Part shown: positions 1 to 10,364 of the stretch, one piece after another | Layout of the letters: every line of letters begins with the position of its first letter | Position numbering within the stretch: position 1 is the stretch's first letter | NCBI GenBank assembly: GCA_964538085.1 | Contig: CAZIDF010000008.1 | Span: 80,466 to 144,465, forward strand | Origin: an uncultured Eubacteriales bacterium | Lineage (GTDB): Bacteria > Acidobacteriota > Aminicenantia > Aminicenantales > Aminicenantaceae | DNA length: 64,000 nt | Direction: 5' to 3' | The notes under the pieces: generated by a model | Told to the model about the DNA's origin: nothing | What the model saw: only the letters and a program-made list of their open reading frames with translations | Databases searched by the model: none | Program-made: the position numbers and the translations under genes

Positions 1-837
1 ATGCTGGTAACTGGATTTATCCTGATGATTTGTATTTTGCTAACCCTGATCGTCCATAAAAGGGAAGTCACCAAATCCTCGAGGAAAATCCTCGAACAAA
101 AAACAAATGAATCCGTCACCGAAAAAGCCGAGGAAAAACCACTCAAAAAAGGCGGCGGCTTTCGTATAATATTCCAGAGCAAGTACCTTTTCTTGGTCGC
201 ATTAGTCATTTTGTGTCTTAATTACGTCAACACTACAGGAGAATACATAAAATCCAGCGTGTGGCAGAAAACAACGACTGAAGCTATCGCGTCAGGAAAG
301 ATCGAAAATACAGCGGAAGCTAGGTCGGAATTCTACACAAAAACAGAATCTGATTTCACCTCAGTCGCGAATCTGTTGGCCATGCTCATCCAGCTCTTTT
401 TGGTTTCCCGAATTTTCAAATGGTTTGGCGTAAGAGGAGCAATGCTCTTTCTCCCCTTCATCGCATTGGGGGGTTATTTTCTAATCGGTCTTGGCGCATC
501 ATATGCTGTTGTCAGATGGACTAAAACGGCAGAAAACAGCACGGACTATTCTTTGATGAACACCGTCAAGCAAGCTTTATATCTCCTCACGGACAGGGAA
601 GCAAAATACAAAGCTAAGGCAGCCATAGACACGTTTTTCGTGAGAACGGGAGATGTTTTGGTGGCTTTGACAATATTTATCGGGACTACCTACTTTGCAT
701 TGAATTTGGAAAGTATTGCGAGACTAAACGTGGCGGTTGCTGTGATTTGGATAATTCTGAGCTTTTTGACTATCAAAGAGCACAAACGATTATCAGCGAA
801 AAGAGTCGCCGATCAGCAAAATCCAAATGCCGAATGA
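1..837 (+). CDS. C-terminal portion of a polytopic membrane transporter, possibly a TLC-family nucleotide (ATP/ADP) translocase-like protein; the 5' end lies outside the window
   Basis: The ORF is open at the window start and contains several hydrophobic helices. The segment KYKAKAAIDTFFVRTGDV resembles the conserved K-x-K-A-A-V-D...GK region I recall from TLC ATP/ADP translocases. This assignment is from memory of the family only. Confidence 0.45.
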   Translation: MLVTGFILMICILLTLIVHKREVTKSSRKILEQKTNESVTEKAEEKPLKKGGGFRIIFQSKYLFLVALVILCLNYVNTTGEYIKSSVWQKTTTEAIASGKIENTAEARSEFYTKTESDFTSVANLLAMLIQLFLVSRIFKWFGVRGAMLFLPFIALGGYFLIGLGASYAVVRWTKTAENSTDYSLMNTVKQALYLLTDREAKYKAKAAIDTFFVRTGDVLVALTIFIGTTYFALNLESIARLNVAVAVIWIILSFLTIKEHKRLSAKRVADQQNPNAE

Positions 838-861: not shown

Positions 862-1698
862 CTATCGCAAATCCTTGACCTTCAGGATTCCGCCCGAATC
901 CTGGGCGATGTACAAAAAGCCCTCATCGTCTCTGGCGATTCCTTCCTGATTATCCCCAACGAATGCATACTCTTTGACGATCCTGCCTTCGAGGGTTATC
1001 TCGACAAGGATGTTGTCCGCATCGTCCACCACATTCAACAATCGGGTTCGATGATCATAATACATGGCCGCAGGGTCGTCTAATTTCAGGGGCAAAACCC
1101 GAAGGATGTGGGCTTCCGCTGTCCGCTCCTGGCTGGATTTCAAAGGAATTTGGACTTCCATGACACAAGGGGGATCCCACTGGTTCCCGATATAAAATGT
1201 CCCCCCTTCCGGATGTTCTTTATCCTCCACGAATGCGATGGATTCGATTCCATTGTCAAAACGGTCCTCTCGCTTCTCGATATAACCGGGATTGCCTTCA
1301 TACTCACGATTTAAAGGGAAGGAACGGATGACCTCCCTTTTTTCAGGATCGAACTCTAATATTATATCAGCTCCCTCTTTCACCAGATACAAAAGCCCTG
1401 ACTCCGGATTGACTGTAACACCTTCAAGATCTCCCGGAATTGCTTTCCTGAACACGGGAGTGCCATCTTTTTCGATTTCCATAATCTCACCTTCATCGCT
1501 GACGACAAAAAGCGTTTTCCTCGTCGGATGAAAACAAATACCCGATGGCTCAGGGAACTCTTGATGATCTATAGTCCCGCCATACCCAGGCTCACCCAGC
1601 CACTGGTAGGGAAACCGGATGGTAGGAGAATACTTTGTATTCGAGCAAGCCGCCAGAAAAAACAGGAATATCAACACCCAAATTTTTGTTCTTTTCAT
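862..1698 (-). CDS. lipoprotein with an SdiA-regulated/phytase-like beta-propeller domain
   Basis: The N-terminus MKRTKIWVLIFLFFLAACS has a lipobox Cys. The motif EPSGICFHP...LFVVSDEG is typical of the SdiA-regulated (YjiK-like) propeller family. Confidence 0.55.
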   Translation of the reverse strand: MKRTKIWVLIFLFFLAACSNTKYSPTIRFPYQWLGEPGYGGTIDHQEFPEPSGICFHPTRKTLFVVSDEGEIMEIEKDGTPVFRKAIPGDLEGVTVNPESGLLYLVKEGADIILEFDPEKREVIRSFPLNREYEGNPGYIEKREDRFDNGIESIAFVEDKEHPEGGTFYIGNQWDPPCVMEVQIPLKSSQERTAEAHILRVLPLKLDDPAAMYYDHRTRLLNVVDDADNILVEITLEGRIVKEYAFVGDNQEGIARDDEGFLYIAQDSGGILKVKDLR

Positions 1699-1810: not shown

Positions 1811-2635
1811 ATGAAAAGGGCAATTTTTCTCACCATAACCTCCGTTTTTATGTTATCCACTTTTTTGGCCCATGCGCAATTCAGTATGGATGAGATCGCC
1901 AAAAGGGAAAAAATTGAACAACTACTCAAAAAAGCCGATATTTCCAAAGCCGAAGAAATCGGGGAAGGCGTTACTAAGCCCTGGCGGCTTTACCTAAACA
2001 AAGAGGAAGAAGAACTGAGCGGGTGTTGGAAGAATCCCCAAGGAGTCCAGAAGGGCCACTTGGAAGGATGGCAGTATGAGATCGCAGCTTACCGGATGGA
2101 CAAGCTCCTGGGATTAAACATGATTCCTCCCACTGTCGAGAGAGAGTTCGAAGGAAAAAAAGGCTCTCTTCAGCTCTGGGCCGAATCGGATTTCAGTTTA
2201 CTCGATGTGATGGAACAAGGTATTCCTCTTCCAGTCAAAAATCCCGAAGCTACGATATTCAACAGAGGTAAGTATTTAGCCCGGGCATTCGATAGCCTCA
2301 TTGCAAACGAAGATCGAACACAACAAAATGTCCGCTATAGAAAGGATTGGCGAATGATTCTGATTGATCATTCTCGTTCCTTCCGCAGCAAGAAGAAATA
2401 CCAGAAGAAACTGTTGTATGGAAAGAATGGATCGAAAGAAAAAAAACTTTTCAAGCAGCTCCCCTACTCATTCGTGGAAAAGGTCAAATCCTTAGATTTT
2501 GATACAATTAAAAATGCAGTGGGCCCTTACCTTTCGAACGAAGAGATAACCGCTATTCTGGCTCGTAAAAAACTGCTCCTCGAAGAAATCGAGGAGATGA
2601 TCGAAGAAATGGGCCAAGACAAGGTACTATACTAA
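1811..2635 (+). CDS. secreted atypical protein kinase, Fam20C/four-jointed-like fold (paralog 1)
   Basis: There is a signal peptide (MKRAIFLTITSVFMLSTFLAHA). The catalytic-loop-like LIANEDRTQQN and metal-binding-like ILIDHSRSF align with GNMDRHH...HLDNGRGF of Fam20C as I recall it. It is 60-70% similar to the adjacent paralog over the core. Confidence 0.5.
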   Translation: MKRAIFLTITSVFMLSTFLAHAQFSMDEIAKREKIEQLLKKADISKAEEIGEGVTKPWRLYLNKEEEELSGCWKNPQGVQKGHLEGWQYEIAAYRMDKLLGLNMIPPTVEREFEGKKGSLQLWAESDFSLLDVMEQGIPLPVKNPEATIFNRGKYLARAFDSLIANEDRTQQNVRYRKDWRMILIDHSRSFRSKKKYQKKLLYGKNGSKEKKLFKQLPYSFVEKVKSLDFDTIKNAVGPYLSNEEITAILARKKLLLEEIEEMIEEMGQDKVLY

Positions 2636-2662
2636 ATTACCTATGAAGGAGGGACAATAACG

Positions 2663-3493
2663 ATGAAAAAGCTTTTCCTCTTGTTATTAATCTTGACATT
2701 TGCCGTTGGCTTCCCATTCCAGGCTTTTGCCCAATTCACTGACGAAGAAGTGGCCGAAAGGGCAAAGTGGGAGGATTTTCTCACCAATGCAGAAGTCACT
2801 GCGCAGGAACAGCCTTTCAGTGAATCGGAAGCTGTGACAAAACCATGGAAACTCACCCTGGAAAAGGATGGAGTCACAAAAAATGCGCTTTGGAAGAACG
2901 CCGAAGGGCGCATGAGGGGATTTGTGGAAAATTGGAGATGGGAGATCGCCGCGTACCTACTGGATAAACATCTGGGGTTGAACATGGTTCCTCCCACAGT
3001 AGAAAAAAGATTCCAGAATAACCTTGGTTCTTGCCAGATTTGGGTGGATGCCAAGATGAGCCTCAAGGAGAAATTCGAGCAAGATATAAAGACACCTTCA
3101 TATAAAGTTTTTCCTTGGAATCGGGCTCTTTACCTGCAACGGGCGTTCGATAATCTGATAGCCAACGAAGACCGTCATCAGAATCAATACCTTATAACCG
3201 AAGACTGGCGTATGATATTAATCGATCATTCCCGCTCTTTTCGCACTTCCGGTAAATTCGCCAAAAATCTCATCTACGACGAGAATTACAAAGAAGGTCC
3301 CCGTTTGATGAAACAACTGCCTCGCGCATTTGTGGATAAATTGAAAGCTCTAGATGCCGACTCCATCAAAGGTGTTGTCGGTGAATATTTAACTGACAAA
3401 GAGATCGAGTTCGTCCTGATTCGGCGGGACCTTATCATCAAATGGCTGGATAAAGAAATCAAAAAAGAGGGAGAAGATAAAGTATTATATTGA
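2663..3493 (+). CDS. secreted atypical protein kinase, Fam20C/four-jointed-like fold (paralog 2)
   Basis: There is a signal peptide (MKKLFLLLLILTFAVGFPFQAFA). It carries the motifs LIANEDRHQNQ and ILIDHSRSFR, in tandem with its paralog. Its RBS/start lies 28 nt after the previous stop. Confidence 0.5.
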   Translation: MKKLFLLLLILTFAVGFPFQAFAQFTDEEVAERAKWEDFLTNAEVTAQEQPFSESEAVTKPWKLTLEKDGVTKNALWKNAEGRMRGFVENWRWEIAAYLLDKHLGLNMVPPTVEKRFQNNLGSCQIWVDAKMSLKEKFEQDIKTPSYKVFPWNRALYLQRAFDNLIANEDRHQNQYLITEDWRMILIDHSRSFRTSGKFAKNLIYDENYKEGPRLMKQLPRAFVDKLKALDADSIKGVVGEYLTDKEIEFVLIRRDLIIKWLDKEIKKEGEDKVLY

Positions 3494-3949
3494 ATCCGAA
3501 GCTTTGATTTCCTCGATGCTTTTGTGCATAATCAAAATATTCTGATCATTTTCCCTTCGGTACTCAAATCCATTCATGAGCTGCCGGGATAAAAATATAC
3601 CCAAGCCTCCTGTCTGGCCTTGGTTGACCATTTCCTGGATATCCGGATCCGGAGCTTCCCTGGGATCGAAAGGAATACCCCAGTCTCTAATCTCAAAAAA
3701 TAATTTTTTATCCTGATTCCATATTTTCAGGAAAATTTCCCCCTTCTCCTCCGGATAGGCGTAACGAACGATATTGATACACATTTCCAGGAGGGATAAT
3801 TCGATCGAATAGTAAGCTTCTTCAGAAAGGTTGAGGCTTTTGAGTGTTTTTTCCAGAAAGTTGCGAACCTTCTCTATCTCGATGAGTTCGCTTTTTACAG
3901 TTATAGAATTCTCCATCCAAATTGCTATTTCTTCTCTTATTTCTGCCAA
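3485..3949 (-). CDS. anti-sigma regulatory factor-type serine kinase (RsbW/SpoIIAB-like HATPase)
   Basis: It is 154 aa, with a GGLGIFL G2-box-like motif and an N-box-like LEMCINIVRYA, which fits the RsbW family size. No STAS partner is adjacent. Confidence 0.6.
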   Translation of the reverse strand: MAEIREEIAIWMENSITVKSELIEIEKVRNFLEKTLKSLNLSEEAYYSIELSLLEMCINIVRYAYPEEKGEIFLKIWNQDKKLFFEIRDWGIPFDPREAPDPDIQEMVNQGQTGGLGIFLSRQLMNGFEYRRENDQNILIMHKSIEEIKASDSI

Positions 3950-4369: not shown

Positions 4370-6247
4370 CTATTCTGTTTTATTTTTCTTAAATGCGATG
4401 GAAAATGTTTTCCATACTTTAACATTCACACCATCTTTCTGGGCCGGGGAAAACCTCCATTGACGAACAGCCTCATCACACACTTTCTTAAATGCAGGAG
4501 CCGTTTTTGTTGGATCCAAAAAGGCAACATCCAGGACATTCCCGAATTCGGAGATGAGCGCACGAAAAACGACCGTTTCTTCAATCCCCTGTTGAAAGGC
4601 AGCAGGGGGATATTTGGGATTGACCTTTTTCGTAGCCACAGGAGGCACGTCAACGGATTCAATCGGTACCAAATCCCCAGTCTTGATCCTGTCAGAGGTG
4701 TTTTCTGACTGGATGATGTTTTGGACTGTTTCCTTTAACAGAGGTGAGCTCATTTCAACATCCGATTGTCCTAACTCTTCCTCGCCTGTCTCTTCTACCT
4801 CGATAATCTCGAACTGACGTGACTCAGGCTCGGGAGCACCCTCTTGAAGCATAACCTGACGCTGATTCGAAGGCAGCCCTGTTGTGGACATAAACTCAGC
4901 CGTCGATTCTGGCACTGTCTCCGTTTCACCAGAGTTATCATTAGAAGTCGAGTCAATAGCGGCTGGATCCCCCATGACTCCTTCGAGAGAAGACTCACCT
5001 TGCGTTCCCCCTTGATCATTTTCCTCCTGCGTCACTGGAGTGGAGGAATACTCCAAATTTCCCATGGCGGACGTCGAACGCTCCACATCTGAAATCGATT
5101 TCATGCTTTTTGGATCGGAAAGTGTCTTTGGTTTATCCGGTTTCAAGAAATAATATGTAGCTCCAGCGGCAGCGAGGATCACAAAAACAGTCGAGACTAT
5201 CATCAAAGGAAGGGATTTCCTGATCTTTGTAATAAAAGCGAATATATTTTTAGAACCAGATGTTTTTTCTGGTTCTTCAAAATAGTCTTCAAAGATTTTT
5301 TCCTCGGGCTCTTCTCCCTCAGCCTTTTTTTCTTCTCTGCTCTCTTCTTCCGCAACTTCGATTTTCTCTTCCCGTTCCTTTTCGACAGCACCAACTTCAT
5401 ATTTTTTGCTTTCTTCTATCTCTTCTTCTTTCTGAATCAACTCTTCAATGAGCTCTTCTGTTTTCAGTTCTTTTTCCTCAACTGGAGATTCAACCTCAAG
5501 CTCAAGTGGCTGGACAGGTTCCTTATCATGAATCTTTTCAGCCCTCTGGGCCTCTTTTTGGACTACCCGTGCTTCACTTTTCTTTGCGTCTTCCTTTTTT
5601 TGTACCTGTTCATCTTTTTTTTCTGCAGGTTTTTTATCGATATTCAGTCCGAAATCGGAGAGTGCATCCTGAAGCATCTCATCGACTTCGGAAGTTAGAC
5701 CGTGTTTAACAGCTTTTTGTGCTGTCGCCCTGGATTTTTGGTTTCCATCTGCTGGGGACAGATCTTGTTCTTTGATGCTTCTCTCCATTTCCCTCACACT
5801 TTCTTCAATATCAAACGAAGCGGCTTTTTTCTTCTGGATACTCTTTTTAAGGTCTTTAACACTCCCTGATGTCCCGTTTCCCAATAAATCATGGATGGTC
5901 GTCAATAAATCTTCATTTTTGTAGGGCTTTTCGAAAAAAGCAGCGGCGCCGAAGGTTTCGAGCGCTTCAGATCTATAGTGATCCCCTTTATAAAAACCTG
6001 TTGTGATAATGACAGGGGCGCTTTTTTTGGAGTCTTTAGAAATTTTCCGACAAAGATCGAAACCGTGGAGCTTCAGGAGCATAGGCTCAAGGATGACTAA
6101 ATCTGGATTCTCCGACTCAAACATCAGTAATCCTTCGTGCCCATCTTTGGCTGTTACTACTTGAAATCCCTCTGTTTGCAAAGTTTGTAAAAGCGTATTT
6201 AGGGAATTCTCTTCGAATTCAACGACCAATATTTTTTCGTTTCTCAT
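4370..6247 (-). CDS. fusion protein: N-terminal CheY-like receiver domain (Asp to Glu at the phospho-acceptor), long Glu/Lys-rich linker, one TM helix, C-terminal TonB C-terminal domain
   Basis: The receiver is KILVVEFEEN...DLVILEPMLL...VIITTGF...FFEKPY, with E where D57 is expected. The TM segment is LPLMIVSTVFVILAAAGATYYFL. The C-terminus (VNPKYPPAAFQQGIEETVVFRALISEFGNVLDVAFL...AVRQWRFSPAQKDGVNVKV) matches the TonB_C consensus. Confidence 0.65.
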   Translation of the reverse strand: MRNEKILVVEFEENSLNTLLQTLQTEGFQVVTAKDGHEGLLMFESENPDLVILEPMLLKLHGFDLCRKISKDSKKSAPVIITTGFYKGDHYRSEALETFGAAAFFEKPYKNEDLLTTIHDLLGNGTSGSVKDLKKSIQKKKAASFDIEESVREMERSIKEQDLSPADGNQKSRATAQKAVKHGLTSEVDEMLQDALSDFGLNIDKKPAEKKDEQVQKKEDAKKSEARVVQKEAQRAEKIHDKEPVQPLELEVESPVEEKELKTEELIEELIQKEEEIEESKKYEVGAVEKEREEKIEVAEEESREEKKAEGEEPEEKIFEDYFEEPEKTSGSKNIFAFITKIRKSLPLMIVSTVFVILAAAGATYYFLKPDKPKTLSDPKSMKSISDVERSTSAMGNLEYSSTPVTQEENDQGGTQGESSLEGVMGDPAAIDSTSNDNSGETETVPESTAEFMSTTGLPSNQRQVMLQEGAPEPESRQFEIIEVEETGEEELGQSDVEMSSPLLKETVQNIIQSENTSDRIKTGDLVPIESVDVPPVATKKVNPKYPPAAFQQGIEETVVFRALISEFGNVLDVAFLDPTKTAPAFKKVCDEAVRQWRFSPAQKDGVNVKVWKTFSIAFKKNKTE

Positions 6248-6616: not shown

Positions 6617-8587
6617 TCATCGCTCATCCACATCATCAGATAACAATCGAAAAGCTTGAACGCGGCTGTTGTCTCTCTCGACAACGTACACATTCCCGTT
6701 GGAATCGACGATAATTCCCGAGGGATAATTAAACTGGCCATCACCTGCACCTTTATCTCCCCATTTGGAAATGAACTGACCCGACCTATCAAATTTTTGT
6801 ATCCTGTTATTGCCGGAATCAGCGATGTAAACAAACCCGTTTTTATCGAGACACACTCCCATGGGAATATTGAGGTCACCATCATCAGAACCGGCTTTTC
6901 CCCAAGAATCGAGCAACTCTCCATCCAGGGAAAATTTTTGAAGCCGGGTTCTATCCAGAACGTACAATTCATTTTTTTGATTTATGGCAATGGCTGCCGG
7001 GAAAATAAACTCTCCTCCCTCAGTTCCCCTCTTCCCGAAACTTCGTTTAAAATCACCAAGATTCGAGAACTTTTTGATGCAATGGTTTGTGGAATCAGCG
7101 ACATAGACGTTTCCTTCTCTATCGACTGCAATGCCCAAAGGTGTTTTAAATTCAAGGTTATCCGATCCTTCCTTTCCCCATTTTTTTACTAAATTCCCGC
7201 TTTTATCAAACTTCAGAACAGCGTGTTTTTTTTCATCCGTCACAAATATGTTCCCTTGGCTATCGACCGCAATCCCTCCAGGACTTTTCACATTTTTGAA
7301 ATCTTTTCCTCCAGAACTCCAGTTGGGATCGATCTTTCCATCTGGCAGGATTTTTTTTATTTTCGTTTCGCTGTCATCGGCGACATAAAGGATACCATTA
7401 TGATCCACTGAAATGCTGACGGGTCGTTGGAATACCGTGCTGTTCGGAGCACCCCACTTCTTGACATACACATAGGTTTTTCCGGCGAGCAAAACATCGA
7501 TAGAGATCGGATTTTCCCCAAGGGGAATCTCGACTATGCCTTCCCAATCGGCATAATTCTTTTTAGATATTCTTACGTTATGGGTACCGAAGGAGACATA
7601 GGGCAATACGCTATCCGTTACCTGCCCTGTATCTTCCTCGTCCAAAAAGATATTCGCACCCTGCGGCATGGATTTCACTTCCAAATTCCTTCCCAATCTT
7701 TCTAAATCATATTCTTTATCCGTATCTTCCTGGGATAGGAACAGTTCATCTTTTTGGATTTTGTACCCCTCTTTTTCTATCTCAAGAATCACTTTAGGGG
7801 ATTCTGACCTGTATATCAGAGGTGTCACCCCGATATGTTCGCCATTGATCTTTATGCTTGCCTGCTCTGGCCGAGATGAAATTCGAAGGGAATAGTTCTT
7901 GATTATACCAAGATATTCCTTTTCCGCTTGATCAATCAAGCCCCCGATATTTGGATCATAGATATTGCGTGTGATCATCTTTCCATAGGCATAATCCACC
8001 TCAAACATGTTTCTGATTTCTTTGAGAGCCGCATAGGCATCTCCCAAGCCTGAATAAGCCATCCCTGTCCATAAAAATATCTCTGTTGCCAACTGTCTTT
8101 GCTTCTGGATATCTTCCACACGAAAAGTCTTGGCAACAAGGGGACTCAGAGAAACCAAAGCGTCTTCAAATTTATTCTCCTGCCTGATAAATTGCCTGCT
8201 TTCCTCCAACCGGATTTCGATCTTACGGACAATTTCTGATTGGCTCTCGACGTTTAAAGGAATAGAGGCACTGGTTGCCTCGGCCAGCTCATCTTCACTC
8301 ATGGCTCTAACCAGCATCTCATGAATAAATCCCGTGATCTTAAGGCCTTCTTTGTCAAAAGTAACTTTATACCACTCCCCTTGTTTTTCCATTGCATCGA
8401 GAAGGGTGTTTAGAGGAATTCGCGCCAAAGTCTCACCATCGATCTCAGGTGTTACTTTGACAGTGGCGCTATCCACAATGACTTTGACTTTGACTGGATT
8501 TTCTTCTTGAGAAATTGCCGGCAGAAAAACGACTGCCATGAGTAGAATTATCCATGTGAAATGTATTTTTCGTGCCATTCGAGACAT
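6617..8587 (-). CDS. exported NHL-repeat beta-propeller protein with a PEGA-like domain and TPR-like N-terminal region
   Basis: There is a signal peptide. NHL-like motifs repeat (GIAVDSQGNIFVTD, GIAVDREGNVYVAD, GVCLDKNGFVYIAD, GIIVDSNGNVYVVE). A PEGA-like segment IKINGEHIGVTPL is present. Confidence 0.7.
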   Translation of the reverse strand: MSRMARKIHFTWIILLMAVVFLPAISQEENPVKVKVIVDSATVKVTPEIDGETLARIPLNTLLDAMEKQGEWYKVTFDKEGLKITGFIHEMLVRAMSEDELAEATSASIPLNVESQSEIVRKIEIRLEESRQFIRQENKFEDALVSLSPLVAKTFRVEDIQKQRQLATEIFLWTGMAYSGLGDAYAALKEIRNMFEVDYAYGKMITRNIYDPNIGGLIDQAEKEYLGIIKNYSLRISSRPEQASIKINGEHIGVTPLIYRSESPKVILEIEKEGYKIQKDELFLSQEDTDKEYDLERLGRNLEVKSMPQGANIFLDEEDTGQVTDSVLPYVSFGTHNVRISKKNYADWEGIVEIPLGENPISIDVLLAGKTYVYVKKWGAPNSTVFQRPVSISVDHNGILYVADDSETKIKKILPDGKIDPNWSSGGKDFKNVKSPGGIAVDSQGNIFVTDEKKHAVLKFDKSGNLVKKWGKEGSDNLEFKTPLGIAVDREGNVYVADSTNHCIKKFSNLGDFKRSFGKRGTEGGEFIFPAAIAINQKNELYVLDRTRLQKFSLDGELLDSWGKAGSDDGDLNIPMGVCLDKNGFVYIADSGNNRIQKFDRSGQFISKWGDKGAGDGQFNYPSGIIVDSNGNVYVVERDNSRVQAFRLLSDDVDER

Positions 8588-8624: not shown

Positions 8625-10364
8625 TTATCTAAATACCAATATTTTCCAAGTGTTTTCCAGTCTCTCCAAAGTTAATGTTTTTTTCCCTTCGAAAATCACT
8701 TTATTGCTTCCCGTTTTTTTGTCAAGGCCGACTAAAAGATGGGAGAAACTCACATCGGCATGGTCCCGATCTATAAAATTGATCTGAAGATCGGCTATTC
8801 GAGAGTTAATATCATCATAGTTATTGAATAACTGCATAGCATCAGCCCTCTTTTTGGACGAAAGTGACGCAGGGCCGATATCGCTTAAAAATGCCAATAG
8901 ATCCTTTTGCTCTTCTGCATTCCTCTGACGTTCGATGATTTGACGAATGGCATTTTCTGAGAGCGCACGATCAGCCAAATCGAAATAACGTTGAGCCTCT
9001 GTGTTGTGGCTGTCTATTTTCAGCGCTTGTTCCATGTTGACCATTGTCTGCTCGTAATTGCCACTTTCATAATCCCGTTTTCCTGCTTTGATGTACCTAT
9101 CTACCTGGTTCTGACTTATTTTGCCTCTTGCTCTTGAAAGATAATCGAGGGCTTCTTTATTCTGTTCGTCTTGAGCCAATATCATCTGGGCGATTCTGAT
9201 AGACTCTGAATAGTCACCTCTCTCAAAGCTTTTCACCAGCTTTTCCGAATCTGTCTCAAAAAATTCCATAACCGGGATCATCGGGCGTGAAACCGGCAAG
9301 GCGCTTTCGACCAAAAGGGGCTGAACATCCCCTGAAAAAGATGTTCTGTTCCCGAATTTTCGGTACAGGAAAAAACCTCCGATCCCAGCTACGATGACAG
9401 CCCCTGCCAAAGCGAGCGGAAGGATAATTTTTTTCTTCTTTTTCGCCGGAGCTTTTATGCCAAATGCTGATTCTCGAATACCAGTCATGGCCAAGGTCTC
9501 ATCAGAGAAATGTGTTATTTTCCTCAAATCGGCGGCCAAATCCGCACAAGAACTGTACCGGCTATCCGGATCCTTTGCTAGAGCTTTTGCAATAATGAGT
9601 TCGAATTCTGGCGGAAGTTCCTTTCTGACCTGGGCTAAGGGTATAGCTTCTTCATTGACGATTTTGTATATCACCGTCGTGATACTTTCGCCATCGAAAG
9701 GCCTCTTTCCCGTAAGCAGTTCGTATAATATGGCACCCAAAGAAAATATATCTGAACGCTTATCTATCTTTTTCCCCATCACCTGTTCTGGCGACATATA
9801 GCTTGGAGTTCCGATCGTTGTCCCGGTTTGAGTTATTGTCGACATCTCGACATGTGCCACTCCGAAGTCACAAATGTGCGGTTTCCCATGGATATCCAGC
9901 AATATGTTGGCGGGCTTGATGTCTCTATGCACGATTCCGCGTTGGTGAGCGAAATCCAAAGCATCACAGAGTTGGAGCATGAGCTTCACGATATCGGGAG
10001 CTGAAAATTTCTTTTTGGAAGAGATCCAATTCTGAAGACTGGGACCCTCGATGTACTGCATGACGATATAGGTCATATCTTTTTCTTTTCCCACATCGTG
10101 AATGGTTATGATATTTGGATGGCCAAGTCTGCCCGCGGCCCTGGCTTCCCGAATGAACCTCAACATAAGCTCATTCTTTTCCTCATCATCTGAGATAAGA
10201 TCGAAACGGATGGTCTTGACAGCGACTTCACGATCTATATCAGGGTCGAGAGCTTTGTACACGATGCCCATCGCACCTTTGCCCAAAAGATCGATGATTT
10301 CGTATTTCCCGATTTTTTCCATACGCCCTTTTCTAAATCCAGAAAAATTGTGTTCGCTAGACAA
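8625..10364 (-). CDS. Hanks-type Ser/Thr protein kinase with a TM segment and C-terminal TPR-like domain
   Basis: Kinase motifs are GKGAMGIVYKA, VAVKTI, HRDIKPANILL, DFGVA and GTPSYMSPE. A TM segment LPLALAGAVIVAGIGGFFLY follows. The start may instead be the downstream Met at about 10322. Confidence 0.85.
   Translation of the reverse strand: MSSEHNFSGFRKGRMEKIGKYEIIDLLGKGAMGIVYKALDPDIDREVAVKTIRFDLISDDEEKNELMLRFIREARAAGRLGHPNIITIHDVGKEKDMTYIVMQYIEGPSLQNWISSKKKFSAPDIVKLMLQLCDALDFAHQRGIVHRDIKPANILLDIHGKPHICDFGVAHVEMSTITQTGTTIGTPSYMSPEQVMGKKIDKRSDIFSLGAILYELLTGKRPFDGESITTVIYKIVNEEAIPLAQVRKELPPEFELIIAKALAKDPDSRYSSCADLAADLRKITHFSDETLAMTGIRESAFGIKAPAKKKKKIILPLALAGAVIVAGIGGFFLYRKFGNRTSFSGDVQPLLVESALPVSRPMIPVMEFFETDSEKLVKSFERGDYSESIRIAQMILAQDEQNKEALDYLSRARGKISQNQVDRYIKAGKRDYESGNYEQTMVNMEQALKIDSHNTEAQRYFDLADRALSENAIRQIIERQRNAEEQKDLLAFLSDIGPASLSSKKRADAMQLFNNYDDINSRIADLQINFIDRDHADVSFSHLLVGLDKKTGSNKVIFEGKKTLTLERLENTWKILVFR

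Follow-up and report, generated by a model that had tools for sequence, protein, structure and literature searches.

Predicted exported Fam20-like kinase-fold proteins encoded in tandem in an Aminicenantes genome, and a candidate module for envelope phosphorylation

Two adjacent genes in a 64,000-nucleotide stretch of an Aminicenantaceae genome (contig CAZIDF010000008.1; the whole stretch that was analysed is referred to as the window) encode paralogous proteins that are the closest bacterial relatives found in this analysis of the Fam20 kinases of the animal secretory pathway. It is close to certain that both have a Fam20-like fold and are homologous to Fam20. Our best reading, to which we attach a probability of roughly 0.55, is that both are exported phosphotransferases belonging to an envelope phosphorylation module, as judged from sequence and predicted structure. 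In many lineages genes of this kind are found beside those for an exported phosphatase and a membrane protein resembling nucleotide transporters, and this recurrence hints at phosphorylation outside the cytoplasm in free-living bacteria. The two genes are as follows.

1811..2635, + strand: paralog 1, 274 amino acids, predicted exported Fam20-like kinase-fold protein of the DRTQQN type
2663..3493, + strand: paralog 2, 276 amino acids, predicted exported Fam20-like kinase-fold protein of the DRHQNQ type

The gene pair

The two proteins are 47% identical across 262 residues (BLASTP, E = 9e-84) and have in common the segments LIANEDR(T/H)Q and MILIDHSRSF. An earlier note on this DNA had described two tandem paralogs of about 275 amino acids, each carrying ANEDR(H/T)Q and ILIDHSRSF; the open reading frames (ORFs) have exactly the boundaries it gave, and both segments can be read in each protein. 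A spacer of 27 nucleotides separates the genes, and Shine-Dalgarno-like sites were seen 5' to both starts (GAGGGA at 1799-1804 for paralog 1, AAGGAGGG at 2646-2653 for paralog 2). Since a terminator scan found no + strand terminator-like site between the genes, they are likely to form one operon with a single transcript; a promoter scan of the locus gave matches no better than those in shuffled sequence. At E<=1e-3 about 3,100 homologous clusters (90% identity) were found for each of the paralogs, which marks both as conserved genes. These clusters come mostly from metagenome-assembled genomes of Aminicenantes and Acidobacteriota; the named ones are all called "hypothetical protein" and none has a precomputed Pfam domain.

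Relationship to Fam20

When a single sequence was compared with the PDB using phmmer, Fam20B was matched at 2.2e-4, and a profile of 22 family sequences matched Fam20 chains only. A larger profile, built from 91 diverse members with about 30% identity to the query, matched every solved Fam20 chain (FAM20A at 2.8e-15, Fam20B at 7.8e-12, drFam20C at 8.3e-11, hFam20C at 2.6e-10 and ceFam20 at 1.1e-8). The alignments ran from beta-3 to the C-terminus, with colinear stretches at profile positions 78-132 and 155-276. The next family was PI4K-II, at 5e-5 to 2e-4 and restricted to positions 132-193. The line-up of motifs with Fam20 proposed in the earlier note was reproduced by HMMER, which aligned FDxLIANEDR with FDFLIGNMDRHH and LIDHSRSF with HLDNGRGF, and placed EIAAYxLDKLLGLNMVPPTVE likewise. 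AlphaFold2 models of the two paralogs (mean predicted local distance difference test, pLDDT, 85.4 and 84.0; predicted template modelling score 0.83) were compared with known structures using Foldseek, and the top ten matches were all Fam20. From the paralogs, whose mature form has about 250 amino acids, 223-231 residues were aligned to Fam20 targets of 351-418 residues. The idea of exported proteins with a Fam20-like atypical kinase fold thus holds up: by profile and by Foldseek the nearest characterised relatives are Fam20, the fold is not an unrelated one, and neither protein lacks a predicted signal peptide.

The earlier label of Fam20C/four-jointed-like kinases stands in so far as Fam20 proteins are the closest relatives, and fails as regards membership of the curated Fam20C family (Pfam PF06702), for which the cut-off is 26.8 bits and the paralogs score 14.9 and 12.9. 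In a Pfam scan the single paralogs gave only sub-threshold matches, to HipA_2, Fam20C and FAM198. In the wider family PF06702 reached E<=0.01 in just 16 of 91 relatives; a two-domain relative, P0250, scored 29.4 bits. The PI3/PI4-kinase model PF00454 gave no match for either paralog at E<=10 and sub-threshold matches in 50 of the 91 relatives (best 2e-7). Structural hallmarks of Fam20 are also absent. The N-terminal segment, the N-lobe insertion (Kbeta5-Kbeta7) and the long Kbeta3-Kalpha3 loop with the dimer motif, the last two of which make up the dimer interface of Fam20, are missing from the paralogs, and no column of conserved Cys was found in any of three family alignments (the 22- and 91-sequence sets included), so that the four disulfides of Fam20 are not represented. 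The beta-3 Lys is separated from the following acidic residue by 11 residues in the paralogs and by 19-21 in Fam20 (numbering of PMC5865150). Because the curated thresholds are missed and the Fam20 insertions and disulfides are absent, we describe these proteins as a separate sister family, so far unannotated, that has a minimal Fam20-type core and lies outside curated Fam20.

The family is large. At E<=1e-3 an exhaustive HMMER search of 1.84 billion representatives returned 4,200 clusters (50% identity), a number that falls to 1,817 when E<=1e-10 is required and to 530 for E<=1e-30; these numbers contradict the earlier suggestion that such proteins are rare in bacteria. We found no account in the literature of exported Fam20-like proteins as a bacterial family, or of a link between their genes and those for phosphatases and NTT-like transporters, an earlier bioinformatic mention being possible. 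What is known is the fold and the presumed chemistry; what appears to be new is the bacterial family, its compartment and its gene module.

A conserved C-terminal motif, ...G-x-x-K-V-L-Y (window 2627-2632 and 3485-3490), was seen to align with the C-terminus of Fam20A.

Active-site residues

In Fam20 proteins the ion-pair Lys lies on beta-3 and the canonical Glu on alpha-C; an additional essential acidic residue, specific to Fam20, is found at the end of the beta3-alphaC loop (E306 in Fam20C, E213 in ceFam20, D152 in Fam20B) and is Gln in the pseudokinase Fam20A (PMC5865150, PMC5413348, PMC7948968). The alpha-C Glu of Fam20C is E311, five residues past E306 (PMC5865150, PMC5413348). The catalytic Asp of Fam20C is D458 (in N-M-D-R-H-H), the DFG-type Asp is D478, and D451, in F-D, forms a salt bridge (PMC5865150, PMC5413348, PMC7948968). 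The corresponding segments of the paralogs are listed here.

2063..2092, + strand: paralog 1 E85-G-W-Q-Y-E90-I-A-A-Y94, Fam20-type acidic residue and alpha-C Glu, aligned by HMMER to drFam20C ERHNAEIAAF
2306..2329, + strand: paralog 1 catalytic loop N166-E-D168-R169-T-Q-Q-N173, aligned with Fam20 GNMDRHHYE
2363..2383, + strand: paralog 1 I185-D186-H-S-R-S-F191, DFG-equivalent metal-binding segment, aligned with Fam20 LDNGRGF (Fam20C D478, PMC5413348)
2927..2956, + strand: paralog 2 E89-N-W-R-W-E94-I-A-A-Y98, Fam20-type acidic residue and alpha-C Glu
3164..3187, + strand: paralog 2 catalytic loop N168-E-D170-R171-H-Q-N-Q175, with Gln in place of a near-invariant Asn at the +5 position
3221..3241, + strand: paralog 2 I187-D188-H-S-R-S-F193, DFG-equivalent metal-binding segment, aligned with Fam20 LDNGRGF

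HMMER places A-x-[FW]-K78, E89-x4-E94-I-A-A-Y, F-D163, N168-x-D170-R171 and I-D188-H of paralog 2 on the Fam20 catalytic positions. Column 89 falls on Q258 of Fam20A (FQRHNAEIAAF) and on E306 of Fam20C, and the E-x4-E spacing of the paralogs equals that of E306 and E311 in Fam20C. In paralog 1, E85 and E90 are invariant in the third of the family alignments (A3). Conservation of these positions was counted in 101 diverse relatives, using paralog 2 numbering. The catalytic loop is strongly conserved (N168 in 91, D170 in 96, R171 in 93, and Asn at position 175 in 93), as are D163 (89), D188 (98) and F193 (98); an acidic residue (D or E) occupies column 89 in 99 relatives, and 79 have E94. K78 is invariant among the 22 closer relatives, and we infer that it is the equivalent of the Fam20 ion-pair Lys. 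With these residues in place, paralogs 1 and 2 probably catalyse phosphotransfer, an assignment that we hold with some reserve.

Export signals

Both proteins begin with a putative Sec signal peptide.

1811..1876, + strand: predicted Sec signal peptide of paralog 1, amino acids 1-22, cleavage after AHA and before an invariant QF
2663..2731, + strand: predicted Sec signal peptide of paralog 2, amino acids 1-23, cleavage after AFA and before an invariant QF

The layout, read from the sequence, is that of an n-region, h-region and c-region in paralog 1 (MKRAIFLTITSVFMLSTFLAHA|QF) and in paralog 2 (MKKLFLLLLILTFAVGFPFQAFA|QF): a K/R-rich start (MKR or MKK), a hydrophobic core, an A-x-A motif and then QF. 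This agrees with the signal peptide that the earlier note had assigned to each paralog. The maximum 10-residue Kyte-Doolittle score of the paralog 2 N-terminus is 3.2. Conservation among homologues begins exactly at the invariant Q-F (Q23-F24 in paralog 1, Q24-F25 in paralog 2). In the AlphaFold models the N-termini form detached helices, comprising residues 2-18 in paralog 1, where residues 16-20 make a low-pLDDT linker, and residues 2-16 in paralog 2, where the low-pLDDT segment is 17-21. A simple hydrophobicity rule detected a signal-peptide-like N-terminus in 87 of 101 family representatives, a few of them with lipoboxes. From these features it is very probable that both paralogs leave the cytoplasm.

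The Gln-Phe pair that would follow cleavage (window 1877-1882 and 2732-2737) is invariant in close relatives as well; possible explanations are a pyroglutamate at the new N-terminus or a signal for sorting.

Catalytic and pseudokinase-like copies

The earlier note had suggested that paralog 1, which has Thr where His is found in the DRH sequence, might be a pseudokinase partner. A pseudokinase-like partner does exist in the gene module described below, in the form of a third paralog; paralog 1 was rejected for this role. Among the 101 relatives the residue after D-R varies naturally (N in 60, H in 19, T in 13), the catalytic loop has the family consensus N-x-D-R-[N/H/T]-x-x-N, and the clade to which paralog 1 belongs has Thr conserved throughout. 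Paralog 1 retains all the conserved catalytic residues, the +5 Asn included.

The distinctive substitution is instead found in paralog 2. In 80 species-level loci the copies comprised 52 of the DRT..N type, 48 DRH..Q and 31 DRH..N, and from these numbers we take the +5 Gln to be a derived and stably kept state within the paralog-2 lineage. Because Fam20 proteins carry Glu at +5 in the HMMER alignment, Gln there need not abolish activity. We therefore take both paralogs to be probably active, differing in metal or substrate geometry.

In related loci the third paralog still has the beta-3 Lys, the two acidic residues and a DFG motif of the form V-D-F-S/G; its catalytic Asp is lost (Cys, Ser, Arg or a gap), as is the preceding Asn. 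Because the catalytic Asp and Asn are lost while the Lys, the acidic residues and the DFG motif remain, it looks like a nucleotide-binding pseudokinase resembling Fam20A.

Gene neighbourhood in Aminicenantes

A scan of species-representative genomes identified at least 541 loci, and the best 80 were analysed, all of which are from Aminicenantes. Full-length copies occur in tandem in 53 of these 80, always in the order DRT..N then DRH.. and on one strand. Most loci with enough upstream sequence have the same gene order: an exported PPP-type metallophosphatase, the third paralog, a TLC/NTT-like transporter of about 470 amino acids, a propeller lipoprotein on the opposite strand, paralog 1 followed by paralog 2, and an RsbW-like HATPase_c_2 gene, again on the opposite strand. 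The phosphatase has GDxHG, GDxxDRG and GNHE motifs and a signal peptide. The third paralog is either fused to it (about 621 amino acids, in loci L008 and L010) or overlaps its stop codon. Among the 37 Aminicenantes loci whose upstream sequence extends for 5 kb or more, 31 have the phosphatase and the third paralog, 24 the transporter and 17 the propeller lipoprotein; the HATPase_c_2 gene lies downstream, on the opposite strand, in 55 of 73 species loci with downstream sequence. The genes of this neighbourhood, in the window and in related loci, are listed here.

L010:1121-2986, L008:2675-4543, L011:411-2301 and L015:162-2097: phosphatase and third paralog in related loci
1..837, + strand: TLC/NTT-like transporter, 3' part (C-terminal 278 amino acids), cut by the window start; Pfam TLC (PF03219) 31.5 bits against a cut-off of 21
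862..1698, - strand: SdiA-regulated/phytase-like beta-propeller lipoprotein; Pfam SdiA-regulated 2.6e-13, Phytase-like 2.4e-8; lipobox FLAAC read from the sequence
3485..3949, - strand: RsbW-like HATPase_c_2 gene (anti-sigma-factor-type Ser kinase), convergent with paralog 2 and overlapping its end by 9 nucleotides; no signal peptide

The transporter fragment in the window scored 387 bits against a hidden Markov model (HMM) of the Aminicenantes orthologues, and the full-length orthologues of L010 and L011 scored 52.9-54.6 bits against PF03219, covering model positions 160-488 of 491. The HATPase_c_2 gene matched its Pfam model at 4.6e-27 and NCBIfam RsbW below threshold. Because the window opens inside the transporter gene and the closest relative, L006 (87% identity), has the same order, we infer that in the source genome the genes for the phosphatase and the third paralog would directly precede the window start.

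Candidatus Saccharicenans and relatives (L045, L046, L049, L061, L062 and L073) have three tandem full-length copies, with DRSLQN, DRTQQN and DRHMNN, and an upstream pseudokinase-like copy. The family is expanding there through serial tandem duplication.

Linkage in other lineages

Association with a metallophosphatase was also found outside Aminicenantes. Among ten long relatives from the exhaustive search, seven have a Metallophos domain (GDxHG / GDxxDRG / GNHE) fused to the kinase-like domain; one such fusion cluster comes from Chromatiales and is annotated merely as "metallophosphoesterase". The two-domain relative P0250 (L090:8001-10016) has two complete family domains, with FNDDRNSGN and YNDDRNTGN, in a single chain, which suggests that two paralogous domains physically work together. 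At that locus genes for a TLC-HEAT transporter and a metallophosphatase precede that of the double kinase on the same strand.

With a degenerate DNA pattern written for the divergent NxDRNxGN...IDH clade, 80 metagenomic loci with a GC content of 0.5-0.72 were recovered, and 73 of them encode family members. Where at least 3 kb of flanking sequence was available (31 loci), a PPP phosphatase was fused or adjacent in 11 and a TLC gene was adjacent in five. Pfam confirmed TLC and HEAT domains in all five TLC neighbours and a cyclic nucleoside monophosphate (cNMP)-binding domain in four; another TLC gene near a family member, in L087, was borderline (21.4 bits against a Pfam cut-off of 21). Our ad-hoc PPP HMM carried a trace of kinase signal (20-48 bits on kinase genes), and matches below 60 bits were disregarded. 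TLC genes are few per genome. Because of this, the TLC adjacency in the sampled lineages is a strong enrichment, far from universal as it is. Conserved neighbours, for which the earlier note had proposed to look, were found, the phosphatase and the transporter both recurring in other lineages.

In L003 (6922-7779) and L004 (7306-7938), a gene for a SAM-dependent methyltransferase, of differing Pfam types, lies directly upstream of a single-copy homologue on the same strand; this may be coincidence.

Proposed function and alternatives

In the reading that we favour, both paralogs would be Sec-exported, soluble proteins of about 250 amino acids when mature, with a minimal Fam20-type protein-kinase-like fold, and would act as metal- and nucleotide-dependent phosphotransferases in the periplasm or on the surface of a presumably diderm Aminicenantes bacterium. 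In paralog 2, K78 on beta-3 would pair with E89, E94 would lie on alpha-C, D163 (FD) would make the salt bridge, D170 (N-x-D-R) would be the catalytic base and D188 (I-D-H) the DFG-type metal ligand. Exported proteins, modified on Ser, Thr or Tyr, would be the most likely substrates; a protein substrate is favoured over a glycan or lipid because the gene most often fused or adjacent to family members encodes an exported phosphatase of the PPP family. The difference between the paralogs at the metal-binding +5 position (Asn or Gln) would probably reflect distinct specificities or action as a pair. The pseudokinase-phosphatase protein would reverse or regulate the modification, and the TLC/NTT-like inner-membrane transporter would swap cytoplasmic ATP for periplasmic ADP and so fuel the kinases. 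A full module with ATP supplied by the transporter is put forward tentatively, and we think it rather unlikely to be correct in every part. A similarly low degree of belief is given to a dedicated extracytoplasmic phosphorylation system of free-living bacteria, a parallel to the secretory-pathway kinases of eukaryotes, composed of Fam20-like writers, a PPP and Fam20A-like pseudokinase eraser or regulator, and an NTT/TLC ATP exporter.

Several observations weigh against phosphotransfer outside the cytoplasm by a module of this composition. No curated Pfam or NCBIfam model reaches its threshold for either paralog: besides their low Fam20C scores, the paralogs score 13-16 bits against HipA_2 (PF20613; cut-off 27), and 44.2 and 41.7 bits (E 1e-11) against TIGR03843, the SCO1664 family (cut-off 172.4). 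The signal peptides, in the paralogs and in their relatives, were called by rules only (layout and hydrophobicity). The beta-3 Lys is not strictly kept in the wider family (K 56, R 25 and Q 12 of 101); such variation is unusual for active kinases, although misalignment of the variable N-lobe may account for part of it. Paralog 2 (DRHQNQ) is the only sequence among the 101 with Q at +5, its Asn having moved by one position. The PPP partner has a weak ApaH match, and its presence does not prove a protein substrate, because the PPP family also includes diadenosine tetraphosphate (Ap4A) hydrolases. The TLC-like protein scores 50.2 bits against TIGR00769, the model for characterised NTP/NDP exchangers (cut-off 387.2), and is very far from characterised NTTs. 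The periplasm is usually taken to lack ATP, and ATP could escape through porins. The gene linkage is recurrent but not universal, neither phosphatase nor transporter being present at L003, L004, L088 or L089, and in Aminicenantes it could partly reflect inherited gene order.

The paralogs could be exported kinases of non-protein substrates, either an envelope or extracellular glycan, for which Fam20B with its xylose substrate is a precedent, or a lipid head group, as with PI4K-II; lipopolysaccharide, capsule, exopolysaccharide and membrane lipids would be the candidate targets. We regard this as unlikely: characterised members of the PPP family, the commonest partner, are mainly protein phosphatases or Ap4A hydrolases, and no recurrent glycosyltransferase or lipid-synthesis genes were present in the neighbourhoods examined. 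Somewhat less probable again is that the exported proteins are not phosphotransferases, serving as pseudokinase-type scaffolds for a nucleotide or other ligand, or catalysing AMPylation as SelO does or glutamylation as SidJ does. Such alternative chemistry is documented for kinase-fold proteins (cited in PMC7948968), and the variable beta-3 Lys of the wider family, the +5 Gln of paralog 2, the clearly degenerate third paralog in the same module and the doubtful supply of ATP outside the cytoplasm would all be in keeping with it. However, both paralogs keep the beta-3 Lys, both Glu residues, the catalytic Asp and the DFG-type Asp. Because such catalytic positions are 89-99% conserved in about 100 relatives despite identities of only about 30%, they appear to be under selection for catalysis; and the pseudokinase-like copy of the family, unlike paralogs 1 and 2, has visibly lost the catalytic Asp and Asn.

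The neighbouring genes also admit a degradative explanation, in which exported phosphoesterases and kinase-fold proteins process extracellular organophosphates or nucleotides and the transporter imports the products. All characterised NTT/TLC proteins import nucleotides (PMC5381601), and the neighbours include the metallophosphoesterase, the phytase-like propeller lipoprotein, an alkaline phosphatase (L087) and genes of the sulfatase/phosphodiesterase type (L003). Yet it is hard to see why such scavenging would require a kinase that consumes ATP and conserves its catalytic base, and no recurrent Pho-regulon genes (pstS, phoU) were found in the loci examined. The kinase-like gene is duplicated, diversified and often fused to a phosphatase, which fits a writer/eraser pair better than linear degradation, and we consider the scavenging explanation improbable, the least probable of those discussed here.

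Comparison with known systems

Fam20, comprising the protein kinase Fam20C, the xylosylkinase Fam20B and the pseudokinase Fam20A, is the best profile and structural match of the bacterial pair. The colinear motifs are A-x-F-K (beta-3), E-x4-E-I-A-A-[YF]-x-L-D, V-P-P-T-V, F-D-x-L-I-x-N-x-D-R, [IL]-D-x-x-R-x-F and the C-terminal helices. A further likeness is extracytoplasmic targeting, predicted for the bacterial pair. Both families have also given rise to sets of paralogs in which one member is a pseudokinase or resembles one: Fam20A in the animal family and the third clade in the bacterial one.

The profile signal to PI4K-II (PI4K-IIalpha/beta, PF00454) is about ten orders weaker than that to Fam20 and covers the catalytic and DFG segments only; these enzymes are cytoplasmic palmitoylated lipid kinases, whereas the bacterial paralogs carry predicted cleavable signal peptides. 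The SCO1664 family (TIGR03843; actinobacterial PI3/4-kinase-like proteins) is the best NCBIfam match, from alpha-C to the C-lobe, but the paralogs are far below its cut-off (42-44 against 172.4 bits) and the family is itself uncharacterised. SCO1664 family proteins are presumably cytoplasmic. CtkA (JHP0940), the secreted proinflammatory Ser/Thr kinase of Helicobacter pylori, has 12-15% identity to the paralogs and no profile match; it acts in host cells, where ATP is available, whereas the paralogs would act in the periplasm or at the surface of a free-living bacterium.

Structurally and by sequence, HipA proteins (PF07804, PF20613) are clearly farther from the paralogs than Fam20 and PI4K-II are, and they are cytoplasmic components of toxin-antitoxin systems; no HipB-like partner gene was found by the kinase pair. 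Fam20 has been described as distantly related to bacterial HipA (PMC6829671). CotH spore-coat kinases are, like the pair, bacterial atypical kinases related to Fam20C, and phosphorylate proteins of extracytoplasmic structures (PMC7821199). Both a HipA-type toxin-antitoxin identity and a CotH identity were considered for the pair and rejected on lower structural scores and the lack of partner genes and family matches.

The finding bears on the identity of the kinases that modify exoproteins and surface proteins of bacteria, and on the source of their ATP. Bacterial phospho-exoproteins have been catalogued without an assigned extracytoplasmic kinase (PMC10450907), and proteins of the NTT and NTT-HEAT-cNBD types have been shown to occur widely among free-living bacteria, where their function is stated to be unknown (Major et al. 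2017, PMC5381601). The linkage of kinase, phosphatase and transporter turns the questions of the exoprotein kinases and of the orphan NTTs into testable hypotheses. If the dedicated extracytoplasmic system were real, its exchanger would be the functional counterpart of the endoplasmic reticulum/Golgi ATP importer that feeds Fam20C, and a role would be found for the orphan transporters (NTT and NTT-HEAT-cNBD) that free-living bacteria possess. Kinases would also have been identified for bacterial phospho-exoproteins, and the origin of the Fam20 lineage would be placed in bacteria.

Other features of the window and of related loci

Three further genes downstream of the pair in the window were noted. 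The first, at 4370-6247 on the - strand, encodes an N-terminal response-regulator receiver followed by a long low-complexity linker rich in Glu and Lys, what looks like a membrane segment and, at the C-terminus, a TonB_C domain; this unusual architecture has features that hint at a phosphorylation-controlled TonB-like protein. A PEGA and NHL-repeat beta-propeller protein with a signal peptide is encoded at 6617-8587 (- strand) and adjoins a gene at 8625-10364 (- strand) for a Hanks-type Ser/Thr kinase with a C-terminal extracytoplasmic region. Near the kinase pair in related loci, an NHL protein was found in 19 of 86 and a Hanks-type kinase in 14 of 86.

One related locus, L056, is titled Candidatus Hydrothermarchaeota archaeon. 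Its gene pair and neighbours are the same as those of an Aminicenantia locus from the same study, L055, and the archaeal label is probably a binning error, not an archaeal occurrence of the family.

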